Shown: piece by piece, positions 2,944-57,210 of the stretch
Layout of the letters: every line of letters begins with the position of its first letter
Position numbering within the stretch: the first letter of the stretch is position 1
Assembly (NCBI GenBank): GCA_019322535.1
Contig: JAHWIM010000062.1
Span: forward strand, 1 to 57,210
Source of the DNA: Candidatus Woesearchaeota archaeon
GTDB taxonomy: Archaea > Nanobdellota > Nanobdellia > Woesearchaeales > WJKL01
Reading direction: 5' to 3'
DNA length: 57,210 nucleotides
Program-made: the position numbers and the translations under genes
The notes under the pieces: generated by a model
The model's database searches: none
What the model saw: only the letters and a program-made list of their open reading frames with translations
What the model was told of the DNA's origin: nothing

Positions 2944-3573
2944 TTATACCTCCTGCTGATTAACAGCTTTTTTTAATTGTTCTAAATCTTCTCCTTCAAT
3001 AATTCTGCCGTGTCCTGGAATAATTACATCAGCCATGTCAAGAATCTTTTTAGCACTATCCATGTATATTTTATTTGATTTTTGCAATCCTTTTTTTATG
3101 CGCTCTTCTTGTATTGCATCTCCTGCAATAACATGGGTTTTTCCTTGGTTTTCTACAACAACAGAAGTATGAGTTGCTGCATGGCCTGGTGTTTTTATCA
3201 TTTTTATTCCAGGTACTTTAATTAAATCAAGATCATTATATCCTATTTGGCCTTTGTCTGTATACCAAACTGTTGCTCCTATTACTCTATCTGCGTTTTT
3301 GAAAAGATAGTTGTTTGTAATATGGTCAAAATGGCTGTGTGTGTTTATGACATAGTTAATATCTTCTGGCTTTACTCCTTGTTTTTCTAAGTTAGCTAGA
3401 ATTTCATCTTCATATCCAAGATTTCCTGTATCAACAATAATATTTTTTTCTTCTGGAGATTCTGCTTTTAATAAAACAACAGAACTGCAGATTTCTTTGC
3501 ATCTGCTGCTGACTGTTTTTGAATCAAATTCTAAATCAACATGTACTCCTTGTTTTAATATAATTACTTTCAT
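2944..3573 (-). CDS. MBL-fold metallo-hydrolase
   Basis: HxHxDH motif (THSHFDH), later TPGHAATH and IIPGHG metal ligands. Confidence 0.8.
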   Translation of the reverse strand: MKVIILKQGVHVDLEFDSKTVSSRCKEICSSVVLLKAESPEEKNIIVDTGNLGYEDEILANLEKQGVKPEDINYVINTHSHFDHITNNYLFKNADRVIGATVWYTDKGQIGYNDLDLIKVPGIKMIKTPGHAATHTSVVVENQGKTHVIAGDAIQEERIKKGLQKSNKIYMDSAKKILDMADVIIPGHGRIIEGEDLEQLKKAVNQQEV

Positions 3574-22935: not shown

Positions 22936-24447
22936 TTGGAACAAGAGAAAGAATATAAAGAGATTATTAAACAAAATCTTGGCAATACACTTACTTCAGG
23001 ATTTATTCCTGAACTTGGTATGCATAAACCAGGAAAAGTAAGAGATGTTCATTTTACATCAAGTGAGCTTGGCAAGCCTATAGTAATGGTTGCAAGCGAC
23101 AGAATTTCTTGCTTTGATAATATTCTTAGCAGACAGATTCCTTTTAAAGGAAGAGTATTGAATTTATTTACTAAATGGGCTTTTGAAAATACAGAAGATA
23201 TTGTAAAAAATGCTATGGTTAAAAGCCCTTATGAAAATGTTGTTGTGCAAAAAAGGATGAATAAGATTCCTTTTGAGTTTGTTGTAAGAGGATTTGTTTG
23301 GGGAAGCATGGCAGCAGATTATGAAGATGGAAAAAGAGAATTCTGCGGTATAAAGATGCCTGATACATTGCTTAGATATCAAAGATTATCAGAACCATTG
23401 TTTACACCTGCTACAAAAGCAGAAGATGGAGACCATGATATAAACGTTAGTTTTGAGTATATGGCAGAAAAATTAGGAAAAACACTAGCTACTCAATTAA
23501 GAAATGCTGCAGTTGGATTGTTTAAGAGAGGAGCTGAACTTGCTAGTAAGAATGGATTTATATTCATAGATACAAAATATGAATTTGGTCTTGATGAAAA
23601 TAGAAATATTCATTTGATTGATGAAGCAAATACTCCTGATTCATCAAGATACTGCACTCTAAAAGAGTATGAGAAGTTTAAACTTATAGAGAAAGAAATG
23701 GCAACAGGCAAATATAAAACTGTTTCTGAGTTATTAGAAGCAAAGCCAGAGCTAAAGATAAGTGAATTGTCTAAGCAGTTTGCAAGAGATGTTCTTGTTG
23801 CAAAAGGATTTAGTTATGGCAGCAGTGGAAAAGTACCTGATCTTTCTGATGAAGATGTTGCAGAGGTTGCTTATAGATATATTAGTTTATATGAGAGACT
23901 TACTGGAAGAAAGTTTAAGTTTCCTGCAGGAAATGTCAAAGAAGATATGCTTTATAATTTGAAAAAAGAAGGCTACATTAAAGGAGGAGTTGTAGTTATT
24001 ATTGCTGGTTCTGACAGTGATATGCCTCACATTGAAAAGATTCAAGGAGAATTGAAAAAATATAGTATACCTTCTGAAGTAAAGATTTGTTCTGCACACA
24101 AGCAGCCTGCAAAATGTGAAGAAGTTGTTAATAAATACAATGATTCAGTTGAGCCTGTTGTATTTATAACAATTGCTGGCGGAACAGATGCATTATCTGG
24201 TGTTGTGTCTTATCACAGCGTGCATCCTGTAGTGAGCTGTCCTCCTGACAAAAATGAATTTATTTCATGTGTAACAAATCCACCTGGAAGTTCTAACTCT
24301 TTGATTTTAAGGCCTGCAAATGTTGCAAGGCATGTTGCAAAGATATTAGGGCATAGTAATGGGGGATTGAAGGAAGTGATTCTTAAGAAAAATGCTGAGA
24401 AGATTAAGAAATTAGAAGATGCTAATAATAAATTAAGAGGTTGTTAA
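22936..24447 (+). CDS. purC/purE: Fused SAICAR synthetase / class II AIR carboxylase (PurC-PurE, PAICS-like)
   Basis: 503 aa with a TTG start after a GGGGGAGGA SD. The N-terminal part is PurC-like (GKVRDV, SDRISCFD, IDTKYEFG). The C-terminal part is PurE-like with SAHK (class II) and HPVVSCPP. Confidence 0.88.
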   Translation: MEQEKEYKEIIKQNLGNTLTSGFIPELGMHKPGKVRDVHFTSSELGKPIVMVASDRISCFDNILSRQIPFKGRVLNLFTKWAFENTEDIVKNAMVKSPYENVVVQKRMNKIPFEFVVRGFVWGSMAADYEDGKREFCGIKMPDTLLRYQRLSEPLFTPATKAEDGDHDINVSFEYMAEKLGKTLATQLRNAAVGLFKRGAELASKNGFIFIDTKYEFGLDENRNIHLIDEANTPDSSRYCTLKEYEKFKLIEKEMATGKYKTVSELLEAKPELKISELSKQFARDVLVAKGFSYGSSGKVPDLSDEDVAEVAYRYISLYERLTGRKFKFPAGNVKEDMLYNLKKEGYIKGGVVVIIAGSDSDMPHIEKIQGELKKYSIPSEVKICSAHKQPAKCEEVVNKYNDSVEPVVFITIAGGTDALSGVVSYHSVHPVVSCPPDKNEFISCVTNPPGSSNSLILRPANVARHVAKILGHSNGGLKEVILKKNAEKIKKLEDANNKLRGC

Positions 24448-25581
24448 ATGGATTATGCAAAAGCTGGTGTTAACCTAAAACTTGGAGATGATGCTTCAAA
24501 GATTTTGTATGAAGCAGCTAAAAAAACATTTGAGAATCGCAAAGATAATATTGGAGAGATTATTGTTCCATTTGATGATTTTTCTGGAGTAAGAGTTATT
24601 GATATTAGTGAACTTCCAAAAGGAAGTTTTATGTGCACTGGGTTTGATGGTATTGGAACAAAGGTTGAGATTGCTCAAAGGATGGGAAATCATTCTTCAA
24701 TTGCTTTTGATCTTTTTGCAATGGTGTGTGATGATGCTGTTGTACGAGGAGCTGAACCTGTATTAATAGGAAGTGTTCTAGATGTAAATTCATTAGGTGC
24801 TGAGGGACATTCTAATATTTTTATGCTTAAACAGTTGGCAGGAGGATATATTTCTGCTGCAAAAGCTGCAAATGTTGCTGTTGTTAACGGAGAAATTGCT
24901 GAATTAGGAAATGCTATTGGTGGTTTTGGCAAATTCAAATATAATTGGTGTGCTAGTGTTGTTTGGTTTGCAAACAAAGAAGGGCTTTTTACTGGAAAAG
25001 AGATTAAATTAGGAGATTCTGTTGTTGTTTTGCAAGAAAAAGGATTTAGGGCAAATGGTTTGTCATTAGTTAGAAAGATTCTTTCTATGAAACATGGAGA
25101 AGACTGGCATAATTTTAAATTTGAAGGAGAAAAGATGGGGGATTTGGTTTTAGAGCCGTCAACAATTTATTCTAAAGCAGTTGTTCATATGCATGGTGGT
25201 TTTAAGACAAAAGGAGTATGTAATATACATGGTGTTGCTCATATTACTGGTGGAGGAATTCCTGGAAAGCTTGGAAGAGTGTTGAAAGCAAGTGGTTATG
25301 GTGCTGAGCTAAATGATTTATTTTCACCTTGCAAAGCTATGCAGTACTGTCAGAAAATAGGAGATGTTAAAGATAAAGAAGCTTATAAAACATGGAACAT
25401 GGGGCAAGGGCTTGTTATAATAACACCAGAGCCTGAGAAAGTTGTTTCAGAAGCTTCTAAATTTGGAATTAACGCTAAAATTGCTGGTAAGATTATAGAA
25501 GAAAGAAAGATAAAATTAAAAAGCAAAGGTGTTTTTCATAATGGAGAACAGCTAGTGTTTGATATTAAGGGGGATGGTTAA
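24448..25581 (+). CDS. purM: AIR synthetase
   Basis: [20 protein letters not shown] and [11 protein letters not shown] motifs. Confidence 0.9.
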
Positions 25582-26837: not shown

Positions 26838-27327
26838 AAAAAGAGGTAAACCTGTATTTAAGGATTTTTTAAGAGCTGAAAGTATAGACGAATTAGTCAG
26901 TTCTGAAGAAAGAGATTTATTTAGAACGCAAAGATTTCTTGGCAGACAAATGATTATGCATGAGATAGAACAGCTGCAAAAACAACAAAAAAAACCTGTT
27001 AAGAGAGGTAAACCTAACTATTCTTTACAAGGGCGAAAAGGAATTAACTATAAACCACTTAAATATAAGCCTATTATTTATATTCCTTTGAAAGCAAGAA
27101 ATATGTTTCGCACTAGTTATAGAAGAAGATTCAAAAAAGGTAAAATACGCAGAGGTGTGTACAGGGTTGCTGGGCTTGGACGTCGTAAGATGAGGAGAGA
27201 AAGAATCAACAGAGGTAGTAAGAAAGGATATCTTGAAGGCATTGTACAAAGAGATTCAAAAATTTTACCTATGCCTTACCAACCAGGAAGAGGATATGCA
27301 GGATACACAAATACAAAAGCTGCCTAA
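26824..27327 (+). CDS. Highly basic (K/R-rich) hypothetical protein
   Basis: 167-aa ORF overlapping the glyA end by 14 nt. It has R/K runs ([28 protein letters not shown]) and no hydrophobic segment. Confidence 0.45.
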
Positions 27328-28133
27328 GATTTTTCTAGATTTTTTATTACAAGAAGCAATGTTATTCTTCCCCAATTTATTAAGAGAATGAAGACTGCAA
27401 TTAAGAAAAGCAATAAGAGAAAGTTTGCTTCTAGTTGAGTTGAGATTGTATACAAAGCTAGAACAGGTAATCCTGTTGTGAGTATTAAAGCTGAGATTAA
27501 GATTTTTGCTTTTTTAATGCCTGTAAATAATGATTGTTTTATGATTTTTGGTATTTGTTTTAGTTCTTTTATTTTATGTATATAAGCAAATGAAATATAC
27601 ATGAAATACAAGAAGATTAAAGATATTATGAGATATACTGGAATTGCTATTTGTATTTGGTCAATGCTGAAGATGTATTTTGATGCAAAATTAATGATTG
27701 CAATTAATGGAATAATGAATATAAGGAATAAAATTCCAAACTTTAACTGATATTTTAAGAAAAGTGATTTTTGATTTAGAATAAAATTTGAGAGATTCCA
27801 GTTTATTCCATTTATTACAATGTATAGGGCAAACATTGTGACAACAAACAAGGTTACGTTTTTAAGTATTGATTTATAATGTGAATATTTTTCCATCATT
27901 GGGCCTAAAGAAGCTAATATCTCTTCATCTGACTCTGCTTCTGCTGAAATGTTTTCCATTGGTGCTAAGAATGCATTAATATCTTCTCCCATTGATATAG
28001 CAAAGTCCATAAATACAGCTGAAGATATGACTATTAAAATTGATTGCATTACAAATAAGACTAAGAAAATAAATTTATGTTTTTTTATTAATTTAATTGA
28101 CTGTTTTAAAGAAGTTTTTAGAGTGTTTAGCAT
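27324..28133 (-). CDS. Polytopic membrane protein E2 (paralog of 35279..36043), last gene of the surface operon
   Basis: 269 aa with a basic N-terminus, TM1, a ~45-aa acidic loop and several further hydrophobic helices. Its layout and several local motifs match E1. Confidence 0.75.
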   Translation of the reverse strand: MLNTLKTSLKQSIKLIKKHKFIFLVLFVMQSILIVISSAVFMDFAISMGEDINAFLAPMENISAEAESDEEILASLGPMMEKYSHYKSILKNVTLFVVTMFALYIVINGINWNLSNFILNQKSLFLKYQLKFGILFLIFIIPLIAIINFASKYIFSIDQIQIAIPVYLIISLIFLYFMYISFAYIHKIKELKQIPKIIKQSLFTGIKKAKILISALILTTGLPVLALYTISTQLEANFLLLLFLIAVFILLINWGRITLLLVIKNLEKS

Positions 28134-28139
28134 TTTATT

Positions 28140-31100
28140 CTAAATTACATCTGTTGATAATCTATCTGCAAGATCAGCTGAACTTATTGCTCTTGCATTT
28201 GCCATTCCTCCTTCAGGAGACACATAATATTGCCAAGCACTTTCTTCTATTTTTGTATAATCTACTCCTGCTGAAATTATGACTGTTCCAATATCATAAT
28301 TGTTTAACTTAGCTTCATCTGGTAGATTTTCTTTTGTAACAATAATTTTACCTTTTTCTTTTTCAGGCGGTGGATAACACTTCTTATCTTCCTTACAATA
28401 TTTCTTTGTGCAGTTGTCATCTAGTTTTCCATCCCAATCACAGTCACAATCTTTTAGATTTAGTTTATTTGGTGCAAAACATCTTGGATAAGTAAAGCAT
28501 TCGTCTTCATCACAGTAGAATTTAGTAGTAGCATCACAATCCTCTTCATCTATGTCTCCATCTCCGTCACAATCACATGGTGCTTCTAGATTTTTATATA
28601 AACCTCCTTGTCGGCAGGCTATATCTTCAGCTTTTGTCCATGGTTTTACTTTTAGTGTGATAGATTTTCTTTGTGGATTGTTTTGATAAGTAATAATATC
28701 TTGGCTTCTTGATTCTGAGCAGCTGCCTTGAGATCTGTTTCCAGGAGCATGTCTTAATTCAAGCTGTAATCTCCAATCTTCTGGTTTATCTGTTGATATA
28801 ATTCTTGGTTCTGTAATAGTAAATTTATATTCTCTACATGGTGTAATTTTTTCATCATTTATAGTACATGTTGATTTTTCTGGAACCATTGGTTGTTGTG
28901 TAAATTCAAAGATCATTCCTTGATTTCCTATTGGAACTGGCGCATTTTTCCCCCATGTCTGCCATTCTGTTGTTCCTTCATGTAAATATTTATCACCTTT
29001 TTGATCTGGTTTTTCTGAAGTATCTTGGACATATATTGAAACAGTTTCTCTATTTGTTACTGTGCCTTCTTGTATTAGTTTTGCATATGAGCCAGATGTA
29101 GGATCAACAGTCCATGTAGCTGGTGTTTTTGCAAAGTCTGATTTTGTTATTGTTCTTCCTCCTCCTAATACATCTAATTCATTCAGTCCTTGAACTAGGA
29201 TTGTTCTAGTTGGGTCATCTTCTGCTGGCTTTAAATCAATAAATCTTCCTTCTCTTTCTAACAGTTTTTCACCTTTCTTATTATAGAGCTGCATGAATAG
29301 ACATTGTTTTTGACCTTGGACAAACACTTCAAATGGATTTAACTTAATTGTATCTTCTACATAATAGACTTGTTCATCGCAATGAACATTATTACATTTT
29401 ACATTACCAAAATATGCTCTTCCTCTTAGATTCCAAAGCAGTCTTCCTTGGTCGCATCTGAAATAACCTTGAGTTTGGTCAAATCTGCAAGCAACAATAT
29501 CATAAGTTGTTGCATCTGAAATTGGAGCGTAGAAAACACCCATTCTTTTGCCAACTAAATGTCCTGGTGGAATACATTGCGATGCAACAGTTGGATTATT
29601 AATGTAAAGTGTAATTTTAACATTATCATATCTTTGAAGTCCTGTCTGCACTGTATGGACTGATCTTGATTCATAACTGCTTTGTTTTAATCCTCTTCCT
29701 GTGTATATAACTCTTGAAGGTCCTGGAGCTTCTTGATTAACTCTAGAAATGCCTACATATGCATCAGAAGTGCAGTCACATCCTGAAGGAGAGTTATCAT
29801 TTTCATCTGCATTTTGGCTTTTTGCTCGTTCACATGCTACTCCATCATAATTATAGAGTTCATAATCTGATACACAAGAAAGACTTACTGTATATCTATC
29901 TATATCGCAGCCAGGTGTTATCATCCAAGCTACTCTATATTCATATGTTGCTTCTTCAGTATCTGGATCCCAAGTCAAATATTCTCTATCTGCTGGCCAT
30001 GCATTTACAGAAGAATGCATTGGTTGTGAATATGCTGCATCAATAAATCCTTCTAAGTTAAACCCCCAATCTCCTGTTAATGCTCCTAAACAAACTTTTT
30101 CTGCAATTGCTCCTTCTCCTACCCCGATATAGTTACGCAAAGCAGCATTATTATAATCATCTAGCAGGGCGTCTGTTGCTTCTTGTACTCCTCCAAAGAT
30201 TGCATCTGCTCCTCCTCTTAATTTATTTCCTAGTTCTGGGCTTTTACCAGCTCCTGACCAAGGAGTACATCCATTTGTTAAACGAGTAATACCCCTATAA
30301 ATCCATTTACAGATATATTGCGTGAATACTTCTTTGCAAAAGCCTGTATCTGCCATTCCTGTTGTTTTAATTTGCTGCAGACAGTTGACTAATCCTGAAA
30401 TGAAATTTTTTGCTGCAACTAATCTATTTCTTATTTGAGGTACACAAACACATTGGAATGCTGGCCATGCGTCTCCTGTATTTAAATAAGGCTCATCTTT
30501 ATTCAGCCAGCTGTCTTGTCCAAAGCAAGCTGGTTTATCTCTTCCTTCATAATATTTATATGGATCATAATAATATCCTAATCTTTGGTATCTATAACTC
30601 CATCCTTTTTCATCAGTTGGTGGTTCTTTTATTGTACCTTGTCTATCAAGACAATAGCAGATAGGTCCTTCTTTTGGACAGTCTGCATCTTGCTGTAGTG
30701 CGCTAAACACTCTATCTGTTGTACCTTTTTTCTGCAATTCTTGTTTGAGTTCAAAAGAAGTTAGACATTTTCCATCTTGGTATTTCTTTTTTACGCAGAG
30801 GTCTTTGCATTTTTTAGTTTTCTCTTTTTTAAGGAATACATTTTTGCCTGATGTTGTTACTTTTAATGTTTCTGGTGTGTCTCCTGGTGGTATTGAACTA
30901 CTTACTCCTCCAACTCGTTTAAGAGTAGCATCGTCCCCTGCACCTGTATCATGAGCATAAACAGCTCCTTTATACACCCAGCACTCAGGATAAGGTCCTC
31001 CTTTAAATTTACAATTTTCTGCAGGAAATGATCTTAGTATTATTCCTTGTGTGCTTGTTATTTCACTGCAGCCAGCTGCTTTTTGAATTTTTAGTCTTAT

Positions 31101-33305
31101 TGTTTCAAAAGTTGCGTTCCCTGTCCATTCTGCAGGAGAACTTCTGCATAAGAACCTATCACAAATCCACCTATAAGAATTGTAGACACTTGCTTCTTTT
31201 TTCCACGCAGCGTATGTTTTTGGACATAGTGTGAATAAATTATATATTTCTGAGAGAGTATTTTCTTTTGTAAAATTAGTTGGTAAATCATTTTGTTTTA
31301 ATTCTTTTAATTGTTTTTCATATTTTTTCTTTAATGCATCTGTATTTTGTTGTTGAAGAAGACTTAGTATACCTGTTGGCATTTCTTTTTCAGCTACTTT
31401 TTCAAATCCTTCTTTTGCAATATCTTCTGCTTTTTCTTGGGTAATTTTTTTAATTTCTTCTTCAAATAATTTTTTAAAATCACTAGTTCCTACTTTTGGA
31501 CAAGGAGCTGGTTTTGTCATTGTTGCTCCTGGTGTTTTTGAAATAATTTGATCTTCAATGTGTTCAAAGTTAGCAACCCATCTTCTGTGGATTGTTGTTA
31601 TGAGTCTTACTCCAAACATTATTGCGCAAGCTCCTCCAATATATTTCATTACTTCATCAAGTGCTTCTATTGCTTTATCTAAGTTAGTTATTGTTTCATT
31701 TAGAAATTCTGCTCCATCATCTAAGAGCCAGTCAGGAAGAACATCTCTTGGATCTATTCTACTAGTGTCAACATGCATTGCAATATCCATACATTTTGTT
31801 TGGAAATCACGGATCTCTTCATACTTTCCTGTATTTGGATTTAGAATCTTATGAGTGTATTCAACTTTAACTTTTAAAGGAAATTTGAATTGTTTTGTAA
31901 GGTCTTCCCATAGATCATCTGAAAAATCATTTAGTCCTTCTAATTTTTTAAGATTATATCTGATGTACCATAGTGTTTTTGCATCATTTGGTTTTTTAAT
32001 TGTAGGAGAATGAGGTAAAATTTTGCAACTGTACTTATACAGGTTATCATCCTGCATTGATTCTGCTTCGCAGGCTCTTTCAAACCTTACATCTCTTATA
32101 ATAGGTTCTTTGCCTAATCCTTGATAACTTATATTTAATATAAAAGACATAATTTCTGTGCCTTCTTCTAATCTTTCAGGAGACATTGAAGTAGGAGATT
32201 GGTATTCAATCATATTTATTACATTCCAGCTAGCTTCTCCACTATAGCAAGTTCCAATTCTATAGTTTAAAGAAAGCTCTGTAGAAAGACCCATTCTGTC
32301 AATTGCAACTAAAACAAGATTTAGTGAAATTTCTTCTTGCGGTCTTTGCGGCTGAGGCAGTGCTTCTTCTAAACCTGGTGGAACTTGAGTTGGCTGCGTT
32401 CCTGTTCCGCCAACAGTTAAGAAACCAGGAATTATAGTTGTACCAACTAAATCAACATCATCTAATTTAAAATTGCCATTTTCATCTGCATTTGTTGAAG
32501 CTAATTTTTCTCTTTTTGTTGTTACATTTCCTGTTATTGGGTCTACTTCTCTTGTTTCAAGATATAATTCAATTTTAGCAAATGGCTCTGTAGCTCCTTC
32601 TATATCTGTTTGAGTGTCTGTTTCATAAAAGAAAGAACCGCTTGATGGAGTAAGGTTTTCTATTGTTGGAGGCTCTGTATCCAAATATGTTTTAGTTTTA
32701 AACTTATCTGTATTGTTTGCTTTATCTTTTGCAATTATTTCTATGAGGTTAATTCCTTCTGCTAATGCTATTGTTTGGTTAATAGAAGTAACATTTTCTG
32801 CAGAATAAACAGTGTTATTTTGATCAAGTATTATATCTAATTTAACTGCTTCTGAAACAGTTCCTCTAACCAGCCAAGTTGAGATGTTTGTCAGATCTGG
32901 AAATTTTGTTAAAATATTAAGTTCTGGCTTTGTTAAATCAACAACAACTGTGAATTCTTTAAAATTAATATTATCAGCAGGGTCTACTGATTCTAACTTA
33001 ATTGTATTTGCTGGAACTAATGAACTTAAATCAACAGAAGGAAAGTTAAATGTTCCTTGCATATTTGGAGTTGATTTTCTCTGCTTAACTCCATTAACAT
33101 AAAGATAGACTGTTGACATTGGTTCTGTTGTTCCTGTAATATCTAATCTGTTTGTTGTAACAAAATAAGGAATTGTTGCATTAATGAAAGGCGGTGTTTT
33201 GTCTTCTGCTGCTGTAGTTGTTACATTTGCATCTTGTGCAACTACTGCTAAAGGCAGCAATATAATCAATTCAATCATTAATACTGATATTAGTTGTTTT
33301 GACAT
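28140..33305 (-). CDS. Giant secreted protein B2 (1721 aa): Ig-like repeats, large Cys-rich region, acidic DxDxDG Cys repeats
   Basis: Signal peptide ...LPLAVVAQD. The N-terminal ~350 aa are Cys-free, full of N-x-S/T sequons, and have D-T-x-P-P domain boundaries. About 50 Cys follow (manual count). CDCDGDGDIDEEDCD and CDCDWDGKLDDNC lie near the C-terminus. Confidence 0.9.
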   Translation of the reverse strand: MSKQLISVLMIELIILLPLAVVAQDANVTTTAAEDKTPPFINATIPYFVTTNRLDITGTTEPMSTVYLYVNGVKQRKSTPNMQGTFNFPSVDLSSLVPANTIKLESVDPADNINFKEFTVVVDLTKPELNILTKFPDLTNISTWLVRGTVSEAVKLDIILDQNNTVYSAENVTSINQTIALAEGINLIEIIAKDKANNTDKFKTKTYLDTEPPTIENLTPSSGSFFYETDTQTDIEGATEPFAKIELYLETREVDPITGNVTTKREKLASTNADENGNFKLDDVDLVGTTIIPGFLTVGGTGTQPTQVPPGLEEALPQPQRPQEEISLNLVLVAIDRMGLSTELSLNYRIGTCYSGEASWNVINMIEYQSPTSMSPERLEEGTEIMSFILNISYQGLGKEPIIRDVRFERACEAESMQDDNLYKYSCKILPHSPTIKKPNDAKTLWYIRYNLKKLEGLNDFSDDLWEDLTKQFKFPLKVKVEYTHKILNPNTGKYEEIRDFQTKCMDIAMHVDTSRIDPRDVLPDWLLDDGAEFLNETITNLDKAIEALDEVMKYIGGACAIMFGVRLITTIHRRWVANFEHIEDQIISKTPGATMTKPAPCPKVGTSDFKKLFEEEIKKITQEKAEDIAKEGFEKVAEKEMPTGILSLLQQQNTDALKKKYEKQLKELKQNDLPTNFTKENTLSEIYNLFTLCPKTYAAWKKEASVYNSYRWICDRFLCRSSPAEWTGNATFETIRLKIQKAAGCSEITSTQGIILRSFPAENCKFKGGPYPECWVYKGAVYAHDTGAGDDATLKRVGGVSSSIPPGDTPETLKVTTSGKNVFLKKEKTKKCKDLCVKKKYQDGKCLTSFELKQELQKKGTTDRVFSALQQDADCPKEGPICYCLDRQGTIKEPPTDEKGWSYRYQRLGYYYDPYKYYEGRDKPACFGQDSWLNKDEPYLNTGDAWPAFQCVCVPQIRNRLVAAKNFISGLVNCLQQIKTTGMADTGFCKEVFTQYICKWIYRGITRLTNGCTPWSGAGKSPELGNKLRGGADAIFGGVQEATDALLDDYNNAALRNYIGVGEGAIAEKVCLGALTGDWGFNLEGFIDAAYSQPMHSSVNAWPADREYLTWDPDTEEATYEYRVAWMITPGCDIDRYTVSLSCVSDYELYNYDGVACERAKSQNADENDNSPSGCDCTSDAYVGISRVNQEAPGPSRVIYTGRGLKQSSYESRSVHTVQTGLQRYDNVKITLYINNPTVASQCIPPGHLVGKRMGVFYAPISDATTYDIVACRFDQTQGYFRCDQGRLLWNLRGRAYFGNVKCNNVHCDEQVYYVEDTIKLNPFEVFVQGQKQCLFMQLYNKKGEKLLEREGRFIDLKPAEDDPTRTILVQGLNELDVLGGGRTITKSDFAKTPATWTVDPTSGSYAKLIQEGTVTNRETVSIYVQDTSEKPDQKGDKYLHEGTTEWQTWGKNAPVPIGNQGMIFEFTQQPMVPEKSTCTINDEKITPCREYKFTITEPRIISTDKPEDWRLQLELRHAPGNRSQGSCSESRSQDIITYQNNPQRKSITLKVKPWTKAEDIACRQGGLYKNLEAPCDCDGDGDIDEEDCDATTKFYCDEDECFTYPRCFAPNKLNLKDCDCDWDGKLDDNCTKKYCKEDKKCYPPPEKEKGKIIVTKENLPDEAKLNNYDIGTVIISAGVDYTKIEESAWQYYVSPEGGMANARAISSADLADRLSTDVI

Positions 33306-54989: not shown

Positions 54990-55496
54990 ATGGCAGAAAT
55001 GCGAGATGTTGTAAATCCAAGACAGGTTATTCTAATAACTTCTAGAGCTCATATGGTTCCTAAATTCAGAGCAAAAGAAGAGGAAAAAGATAATGTTATG
55101 ACAGCTGCCTGGCATATGCCTGTTGCATTTGAGCCACCGCTTTATGCTATTTCAGTTGGTAAGAAAAGATATTCTCTTGATATAATAAGAAAAGGCAGGT
55201 CTTTTGTAGTCAATTTTATGCCTTATTCTATGAAAAAAGAAGTTTTGTTAGCTGGAAGAATTAGTGGAGAGCATATAGATAAATTTGCAAAAATTGGGCT
55301 TGAAAAAGAGGATGCAGAAACAATAGACAGCTGCAGATTAAAAGATGCTCTTGCGTGCTTAGAATGTGAGGTTGAACAGGAAATTGAAGCAGGAGACCAC
55401 ATTATTTTTATAGGAAGAGTTCTTAAAGTAATAAAAAAGAAAGGAGGAAAGCGGATTTATCAAATAGGTGGAGATAAATTCTCTACTATTACTTAA
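54990..55496 (+). CDS. Flavin reductase-like (FMN-binding split-barrel) protein
   Basis: VILITS...NVMTAAWHMPVAFEPPLYAISVGK...FVVNF...GDHIIFIGRV. Confidence 0.75.
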   Translation: MAEMRDVVNPRQVILITSRAHMVPKFRAKEEEKDNVMTAAWHMPVAFEPPLYAISVGKKRYSLDIIRKGRSFVVNFMPYSMKKEVLLAGRISGEHIDKFAKIGLEKEDAETIDSCRLKDALACLECEVEQEIEAGDHIIFIGRVLKVIKKKGGKRIYQIGGDKFSTIT

Positions 55497-55497
55497 A

Positions 55498-55923
55498 ATG
55501 GATGCAAAAGAAGCTGAAAAAGTAAACAAACTTGCAAAGACCTTGAAAGATAATCAATTAGTTGCATCTATGGACGAAGCTGTTAAGCGTGCTAAAGAGA
55601 TGCTGAAAGAAAGCAAAGAAAGTTTAGATGAAATGAAAGCAAGAGAAAGTGCACCTGACGCAGATGAACTGATTAAAGAAGAACCTGGTTTGATTGAAAA
55701 AACCAAGGATGTTTTTGAAAAAAGAGAAGAAATACCTCATGCTGTGCCAGCTAAAAAAGAAGTTGTAAAAGAAATTGAAGAAGAGGTCCAGGAAATAAGA
55801 GATGAGATCAAGAAAAGAAAAGAAGAAAAATTTATTGTGCCTGGAGAATTAAAAGAAAAGGTTGAAGAAGTTAAAGAAGAAGAAAAGATGCTGAAAAAAG
55901 AGGAGAAACAGGAAGAAGAATAG
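55498..55923 (+). CDS. K/E-rich coiled-coil protein (paralog of the next gene)
   Basis: Start at the ATG at 55498 (MDAKEAEKV). N-terminal motif LVASMDEAVKRAKEML followed by a charged low-complexity tail. Confidence 0.55.
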   Translation: MDAKEAEKVNKLAKTLKDNQLVASMDEAVKRAKEMLKESKESLDEMKARESAPDADELIKEEPGLIEKTKDVFEKREEIPHAVPAKKEVVKEIEEEVQEIRDEIKKRKEEKFIVPGELKEKVEEVKEEEKMLKKEEKQEEE

Positions 55924-55927
55924 TGAG

Positions 55928-56461
55928 GTGGTTAAAATAAGCATTGAAGATATACAAAAAATAAACAATATGGTTCAAGAACTTTTGAAAAAAGGTGTTT
56001 GTTCAACAAGAGAAGAAGCTGTTAAGATGGCAGAAAAATATCTAGATAAGAAAGTTGTAAGTTCTCGCACTGATGCGCTTGGACCAGAACCAAAAGCTAG
56101 TCAAACTCCTCAAAATGCTGCTTCTCAAGATCTTGAGACATTAAGGAGTGTCATTGAGAGAACAAAAGAATACACTCAAAAAGACTTGCAGAAATTCAGA
56201 GCTGCTTTGGAAATTTTGGCAAGAGATATTGACAACATCAAAAAAGAAATTAGGAACTTGAAGGTTGCTGGTGAAAATAGGTCTGTTGCAAATACTGAGT
56301 TAGAAGGAAAGAATGTTAAAGAAGCTACAGAAGAGCAAGAGAAATTAGAAGAAGAAACTCCTAAAGAAGAAAAGAAAGATAAAAACTTCCATCCAAAACA
56401 AGGAAGACTTAACTCAGAAGATGTCAGTGTAGAGAAGATGTTTTATTATGGGAAAAAGTGA
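55928..56461 (+). CDS. K/E-rich coiled-coil protein (paralog of the previous gene)
   Basis: GTG start. GVCSTREEAVKMAEKYL motif followed by a charged tail. Confidence 0.55.
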   Translation: MVKISIEDIQKINNMVQELLKKGVCSTREEAVKMAEKYLDKKVVSSRTDALGPEPKASQTPQNAASQDLETLRSVIERTKEYTQKDLQKFRAALEILARDIDNIKKEIRNLKVAGENRSVANTELEGKNVKEATEEQEKLEEETPKEEKKDKNFHPKQGRLNSEDVSVEKMFYYGKK

Positions 56462-56526: not shown

Positions 56527-57210
56527 ATGGTTAATCTTCAATATACTAATTTGAGTTATAAGCCAGGTAAAAAAGATTTGGTTTGTGAATTTTATTTAGA
56601 ACCAAATAAGATTTCTTTTGAAAGGGCTTGCGAGCATGTTGCTGCTGAAAGCAGCATAGGAACATGGACAGATATTGCAACTATGAACAAGCAGATTGCA
56701 AGAAGATTAAAACCACATATTTTTGATATGAACAAAACAAGAAATGTTGTAAGAATTGCTTATCCTTCTGAATTATTTGAAGCAGGGAATATGCCTCAGA
56801 TATTAAGCAGTATTGGTGGGAATATTTTTGGAATGAAAGCAGTAAAAAATCTAAGACTGCAGGATATTTCTTTTCCTAAATCTATTATTAAGAAGTTTAA
56901 AGGACCAAGATTTGGAATTAAAGGTGTTAGAAAATTATTGAAAGTTAAGAAAAGGCCTTTAGTTGGAACTATTGTAAAGCCAAAAGTTGGTTTAACTGCT
57001 GAACAGCATGCTAAAGTTGCTTATGAAGCATGGGTAGGGTGATTAGATTTAGTAAAATATGATGAAAATTTGAGCAATATGGCATTTAACAAATTTGAGA
57101 AAAGAGTACAATTAACTCTAAAAATGAGAGATTTGGCTGAAAGAAAAACAGGAGAAAGAAAGATGTACATGCCAAATACTACTGCTGAAACAGATGAAAT
57201 GATAAGAAGA
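56527..57210 (+). pseudogene. rbcL: RuBisCO form III-type large subunit, interrupted by an in-frame TGA at 57040..57042; the frame continues to the window edge
   Basis: AAESSIGTWT, GGNIFGMKAV and GTIVKPKVGL precede the stop. After the stop the same frame reads LDLVKYDENL...GERKMYMPNTTAE. The TGA falls where GG-x-D has its second Gly. Confidence 0.8.

Follow-up and report, generated by a model that had tools for sequence, protein, structure and literature searches.

The type III RuBisCO gene at the 3′ end of the analyzed woesearchaeotal contig is interrupted by an in-frame TGA, and a short distance downstream of the stop its carbamylated lysine is followed by a tyrosine instead of an aspartate. 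Together, the TGA and the tyrosine codon constitute a single clustered lesion that is not programmed, and the type III RuBisCO is otherwise normal. As to the origin of this lesion, we cautiously prefer a consensus error, or a minority or damaged template, at a thinly covered contig end.

The RuBisCO gene and its continuation on a second contig

The window (57,210 nt) is the entire contig C59 of a genome assembly of 1.09 Mb that comprises 80 contigs, has a GC content of 31.5%, and is 88% complete. The features of the window that are relevant here are listed below, with the basis of each call in parentheses.

54990–56461, + strand: three genes 5′ of the RuBisCO gene, encoding a flavin reductase and two small proteins without a family match
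56527–57210, + strand: 5′ part of the type III RuBisCO gene, codons 1–228 (open reading frame, translation, Pfam)
57031–57039, + strand: G-rich patch TGG GTA GGG, just 5′ of the TGA (sequence)
57040–57042, + strand: in-frame TGA, replacing the invariant second glycine of the W-x-G-G motif (sequence, ortholog alignment)
57058–57060, + strand: TAT (Tyr) in place of an Asp codon, KYDE versus KDDE (sequence, homolog alignment)
57118–57210, no strand assigned: exact 93-nt overlap of C59 and C61 (the last 93 nt of C59 are the first 93 nt of C61)

The RuBisCO reading frame opens with the ATG at position 56527 and is cut by the contig end at 57210. Its remainder is found on contig C61 (positions 94–681), and the joined gene consists of 424 codons. 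Pfam assigns residues 6–119 to RuBisCO_large_N, after which RuBisCO_large begins and spans the TGA; the rest of the catalytic domain is encoded by C61:16–675. Four genes downstream on C61 share 62–86% identity with the genes 3′ of RuBisCO in the closest relative (locus L023), and this synteny confirms the joining of C59 and C61. On the upstream side, the three genes that precede RuBisCO occur in the same order in the closest relatives.

As assembled, the gene does not provide an uninterrupted large-subunit frame but contains one in-frame TGA, at codon 172. Besides this codon, the joined gene contains no further stops or frameshifts. When the stop codon was entered as X, the joined read-through protein scored 571.8 bits against the equivalog model TIGR03326 (rubisco_III; cut-off 497.45) and covered the complete profile (1–426 of 426). 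All of the catalytic motifs KPK, HAHRAGHG, GKMKG, CSGG, and QFGGG are found in the joined protein. The exceptions in the active site are the tyrosine after the lysine (KYDE) and the GG motif, which is broken by the stop, whereas the metal ligands D-E are retained. The initial annotation had described these ligands and the upstream motifs AAESS, GNIFG, and KPK as intact, and all of them are indeed present in the translation.

Judged from its sequence, the enzyme belongs to the AMP/nucleoside salvage pathway of a Woesearchaeota-type DPANN archaeon and represents an ordinary type III (III-b) RuBisCO. Its named homologs belong to Woesearchaeota and Nanoarchaeota, and the occurrence of the type III form in Woesearchaeota has been described before (Jaffe et al. 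2019, PMC6389311). Examples of archaeal type III (III-b) RuBisCO are RbcL of Thermococcus kodakarensis (PDB codes 1GEH and 3A12) and the enzyme of Pyrococcus horikoshii (PDB code 2CWX); among solved structures, 2CWX and 1GEH are the best relatives of the present protein. In contrast to the archaeal III-b enzymes, the gene studied here has a stop codon at the second glycine and a tyrosine for the aspartate that follows the carbamylated lysine.

The two altered codons form a clustered pair of G>T changes

Around the lesion, the reading frame is GCA TGG GTA GGG TGA TTA GAT TTA GTA AAA TAT GAT GAA AAT, in which the AAA at 57055–57057, immediately 5′ of the TAT, encodes the lysine that is carbamylated. 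The 19 orthologs aligned from the family and the order all share the sequence W-x-G-G-x-D-x-x-K-D-D-E-N. In a broader set of 120 homologs, 119 possess glycine at the first altered position and 119 possess aspartate at the second. We take the second glycine of W-x-G-G to be Gly-196 in spinach numbering.

The initial annotation had placed an in-frame TGA at this conserved glycine (57040–57042) and had read KYDE for KDDE; the ORF frame and the alignments bear out both statements. It had also proposed that GGA was converted into TGA by a single substitution. This agrees with the codons of the relatives, which use GGA, GGT, or GGC for the second glycine (and GAT or GAC for the aspartate), one G>T exchange being sufficient to turn GGA into TGA. 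The comparison with sister orthologs that it had suggested returned intact W-x-G-G and K-D-D-E motifs in 19 of 19 cases.

The two changes, GGA>TGA and GAT>TAT, are both G>T, both affect codon position 1, and lie 18 nt apart. The base altered at the TGA was formerly part of a GGGGG run, and the W-x-G-G patch as a whole is the most G-rich part of this AT-rich gene. Among the 72 changes in the gene that are specific to this lineage, just 4 are G>T, and the positional clustering of the pair has a p value of 0.04. From the sequence, the TGA and the tyrosine codon thus appear to be the product of one event that gave rise to this pair of G>T changes. The exchange of aspartate for tyrosine is the second half of this pair and no independent active-site variant.

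The gene was under purifying selection and its pathway partners are intact

The proteins nearest to the RuBisCO are only 89% identical to it. In comparison with the closest intact ortholog (89% amino acid identity), dN/dS is 0.089, and pairs of intact genes yield values of 0.04–0.09. When substitutions were polarized with an outgroup, 72 were specific to the present lineage versus 85 to the sister lineage, showing no acceleration. Among the 123 near-invariant columns of the alignment (at least 97% conserved), the protein deviates solely at residues 172 and 178.

Type III RuBisCO is fed by AMP phosphorylase and ribose-1,5-bisphosphate (R15P) isomerase. Both enzymes are encoded in the same genome, neither of them adjacent to RuBisCO, and both genes are free of internal stops: AMP phosphorylase on contig C26 (TIGR03327, 584.3 bits, cut-off 535) and R15P isomerase on contig C47 (PF01008, 201 bits). 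Taken together, dN/dS, the substitution counts, the conserved columns, and the intact partners indicate that RuBisCO was under purifying selection until essentially now.

A chimeric contig tip derived from another species was rejected, because sliding identity along the RuBisCO gene reveals no discontinuity. The same species was also sought in independent assemblies. A look-up of the exact product gave no match, and neither did DNA patterns with N at both suspect bases in metagenome or genome collections, although the collections may have excluded records of the window's own genome.

Other conserved genes of the assembly carry lone stop codons

Screening of the assembly for single in-frame stops with coding sequence on both sides yielded two cases that could be confirmed and a third that is possible. 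The first confirmed case is the gene for arginyl-tRNA synthetase (ArgRS; locus L037), which is present as a single gene and carries a TAA in the anticodon-binding domain (C13:258), 257 nt from the contig start. At this position, 10 of 11 relatives have leucine and 1 of 11 has valine, and TTA is converted into TAA in one step. ArgRS is essential. The assembly therefore contains stops that do not represent the sequence of viable cells, and the TAA of ArgRS very likely stems from an error in assembly or consensus.

The second confirmed case is a Na/H exchanger (PF00999; locus L049) with a lone TGA in the middle of a contig (C5:2789). The Na_H_Exchanger domain continues across the TGA (profile positions 3–369 of 375), and the 11 relatives have mostly lysine or arginine at the corresponding position. 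The possible case is a putative interruption on contig C49 (locus L067), where a TAG lies 138 nt from the contig end with coding-like sequence on both sides; the only homolog found for this frame (485 amino acids) is 26% identical. Two further candidates were dismissed. A TGA in the exchanger that seemed to be conserved in three genera is the natural terminal stop in genomes G005 and G008, and a pair of SLOG genes on C26 that appeared to be split by a TGA consists of two separate genes without any interruption. Same-frame neighbors separated by a single stop also occur in the window, namely at 22936–24447 and 24448–25581 (TAA, then ATG) and, on the minus strand, at 28140–33305 and 27324–28133 (a single TAG).

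Two of the three confirmed lesions (RuBisCO, ArgRS, and exchanger) are located less than 260 nt from a contig end. Such 260-nt end regions account for 3.8% of the assembled sequence, and the chance of finding two of three lesions there is about 0.004 by post hoc arithmetic. The TGA of RuBisCO lies 170 nt from the contig end and hence from the junction with C61. At 13 contig junctions the overlap is exactly 127 nt, which is the signature of a de Bruijn assembler run with k = 127, whereas C59 and C61 overlap by just 93 nt. We read this overlap, being shorter than k, as a coverage gap and not as a repeat.

Local assembly errors that damage protein-coding genes are known from uncurated metagenome-assembled genomes (MAGs; Chen et al. 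2020, PMC7111523). The present assembly resembles these cases in having several lone stops in conserved genes, two of them less than 260 nt from contig ends. The errors described by Chen et al. were defined by missing read support, whereas the case presented here is known from the consensus sequence alone.

Interrupted RuBisCO genes occur in other lineages

RuBisCO was found in 128 other genomes among 400 sampled from the phylum, and almost all of these 128 are at least 90% complete. None of the 128 has a stop at the site affected here. One apparent second RuBisCO with an internal TGA (contig C2 of genome G389) was discarded. It is a form I-like gene with several stops on a 1.3-kb contig of high GC content, is probably contamination, and has its stop elsewhere than at the W-x-G-G site.

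We also searched a protein collection with the 171-amino acid N-terminal product and inspected fragments that end near the W-x-G-G motif. Three contigs from unrelated lineages (∼53–55% identity) have an in-frame TGA within W-x-G-G-(C/L), with the frame remaining open after the stop.

L031, 1294–1296: W-I-G-TGA-C-D, the same codon as in the RuBisCO on C59
L033, 906–908: W-S-G-G-TGA-D
L069, 2020–2022: W-TGA-G-G-C-D

These TGAs are situated on three different codons, one of which encodes a variable residue, so that no single decoded amino acid fits them. Two control fragments of type III RuBisCO that end elsewhere proved to be broken inside their contigs as well: L071 has a TAA at a glutamate position (GAA>TAA; 1672–1674), ∼15 codons 5′ of W-x-G-G, and L072 has a frameshift (around 1610–1644). 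Together, the five loci indicate that public metagenome contigs not infrequently contain disrupted type III RuBisCO genes. At W-x-G-G, TGAs are in modest excess, with p roughly 0.05 in a crude count. The look-alike cases with lone stops stem from short contigs, and the contig name of a RuBisCO with a KFDE variant gives cov_2.27.

A further locus (L032, on the 647,887-nt record CP070794.1) was uninformative, because its reading frame stops after GG (locus position 3508) at a run of N. Beyond this run, unrelated genes and a gene of the phage-integrase family are found. A degenerate motif scan that allowed any TGN at the second glycine returned one random match and the pseudogene L036; the scan missed L031, and the collection scanned was non-exhaustive. 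L036 (Ga0315312_1013975, positions 243–280) is a decayed RuBisCO pseudogene with several stops on a contig of 46% GC. It has HATEPF instead of HAHRA and a cysteine for the same second glycine.

Genetic code and recoding

Of the 49 complete long ORFs in the window, 15 have TGA as their stop codon, RuBisCO included. For the other 14, a further stop follows within 0–15 codons, and several of them form ATGA overlaps with the next gene. Genetic code 11 tiles the window with genes, and the longest ORF of the window gains no length when TGA is read as a sense codon. This stop-codon usage excludes a genome-wide reassignment of TGA and thereby rules out both glycine and tryptophan codes (tables 4 and 25). 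The initial annotation had considered TGA a genuine stop and a genome-wide glycine code unlikely; its view holds for all 14 ORFs. A search of the genome for a tRNA with a UCA anticodon, which it had recommended, detected none among 15 tRNAs, many of them with introns (genome 88% complete). Its proposal to look for TGA at conserved positions of other genes led to one case, the Lys/Arg position of the Na/H exchanger, in addition to the lone TAA in ArgRS. These 15 tRNA genes are all that can be detected even by an intron-aware search, and most of them bear introns. For one of the 15, two readings are obtained, tRNA-Arg(TCT) or, if an intron is assumed, “tRNA-Pyl(CTA)”; the latter looks like a modelling artifact.

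Components of site-specific recoding were sought as well. The best match to tRNA-Sec is an ordinary tRNA that, at 32 bits, falls short of the gathering score (47), and the best SepSecS hit in this 88% complete genome (14.5 bits) is below the cut-off. Selenocysteine was therefore discarded, as neither tRNA-Sec nor SepSecS was found and the TGA occupies a glycine position. An Rfam search of the RuBisCO locus gave no match. Over the 80 nt 3′ of the stop, structure is weaker than in shuffled controls (z = +1.63), and no fold common to the TGA-bearing RuBisCO cases was found.

A code in which TGA means glycine throughout the genome, as in code 25 of SR1 and Gracilibacteria, would account for a TGA at a glycine position that differs from GGA by one base. 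It has practically no probability left, given that 15 of 49 complete long ORFs end in TGA, that the organism is an archaeon with a type III-b RuBisCO, and that only two internal TGAs were found in conserved genes genome-wide, one at a glycine and the other at a Lys/Arg position. A local event, in which UGA is recoded or read through at the RuBisCO site so that the full-length enzyme is still produced, would fit a frame that stays open and conserved past the stop and the recurrence of in-frame TGAs in three other lineages, all inside four codons of the W-x-G-G motif. Yet those TGAs fall on a variable residue, the invariant glycine, and the Cys/Leu position, and the control genes are broken elsewhere by a TAA and a frameshift. 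Near-cognate readthrough would insert tryptophan, cysteine, or arginine at the invariant glycine, beside a second damaging change, and a stop at this site occurs in 0 of 128 genomes of the phylum. With the UCA-anticodon tRNA, tRNA-Sec, SepSecS, an Rfam match, and a stable or shared fold all not found, we consider recoding or readthrough very unlikely at best. Of the three options left by the initial annotation, nonsense mutation and heterogeneity or assembly error are hence retained, whereas site-specific recoding is unlikely: no suppressor or selenocysteine tRNA, SepSecS, or RNA element was found, the assembly has lone stops in ArgRS and the exchanger as well, and the TGAs of other lineages hit three different codons.

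Origin of the lesion

An error or a minor variant, instead of a fixed mutation, is what we infer as the cause. In this reading, the consensus would have picked up base errors, or a template that was damaged or in the minority, where coverage was thin, 170 nt from the contig break, and the gene of the living population would read GG..KDDE and be functional. Several observations argue for this explanation. Apart from the lesion, the gene is flawless and its pathway partners are intact, and TGA serves as an ordinary terminator. The lesion is a clustered G>T pair in an assembly that has other lone nonsense codons in conserved genes, and the overlap of C59 and C61 is shorter than k, as a coverage gap would give. 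Moreover, no stop was found at this site in the 128 genomes of the phylum, the look-alikes are on short contigs, and errors of this type are documented for MAGs (PMC7111523). On Illumina instruments, positions after GG are error-prone, but the classic miscall is T>G and not G>T (PMC3295828); the systematic “GGT” error was therefore rejected as the direct cause, as its dominant miscall has the opposite direction. The explanation by error is weakened by the position of the lesion, 170 nt from the contig end and not at the very tip, and by the mid-contig location of the exchanger TGA. Furthermore, lone stops recur in DPANN RuBisCO genes, and null alleles of a dispensable gene would give the same pattern.

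Alternatively, the TGA may represent a real and very young null allele that arose by one mutational event and has not decayed further yet. We regard this as possible but doubtful on balance. In the phylum, RuBisCO is dispensable and its distribution is patchy (128 of 400 genomes). Single stops also recur in DPANN RuBisCO genes that are intact otherwise (L031, L033, L069, and L071), and a G>T change inside GGGGGA fits oxidative damage in a guanine run. GGG and GGA contexts have the lowest ionization potentials and trap oxidative damage (PMC3784513). Such an allele is harder to reconcile with the lack of relaxed selection on RuBisCO and with intact genes for AMP phosphorylase and R15P isomerase. 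In addition, the nonsense codon of ArgRS cannot be fixed, so that the assembly does hold unreal stops, and the RuBisCO lesion lies beside the junction whose overlap is shorter than k. Either sequencing error or guanine oxidation could favor GGA>TGA at W-x-G-G. It is conceivable, if rather improbable, that the W-x-G-G patch (TGG NNN GGN GGN) is a true hot spot of oxidative G>T change in AT-rich DPANN genomes, which would recurrently create TGA-bearing RuBisCO null alleles and leave populations segregating knock-outs of AMP salvage.

Consequences for RuBisCO in DPANN genomes

Automatic annotation of this contig would yield a truncated protein or a pseudogene, and RuBisCO together with AMP salvage would wrongly be dropped from the metabolic reconstruction of the organism. 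Because at least two more genes of the assembly carry lone stops, one of them in an essential gene, claims of gene loss or recoding require confirmation at the level of reads, and the same caution extends to similar DPANN MAGs of low coverage. Should the allele prove real, it would add to the examples of RuBisCO being lost from DPANN archaea in an ongoing and patchy manner.
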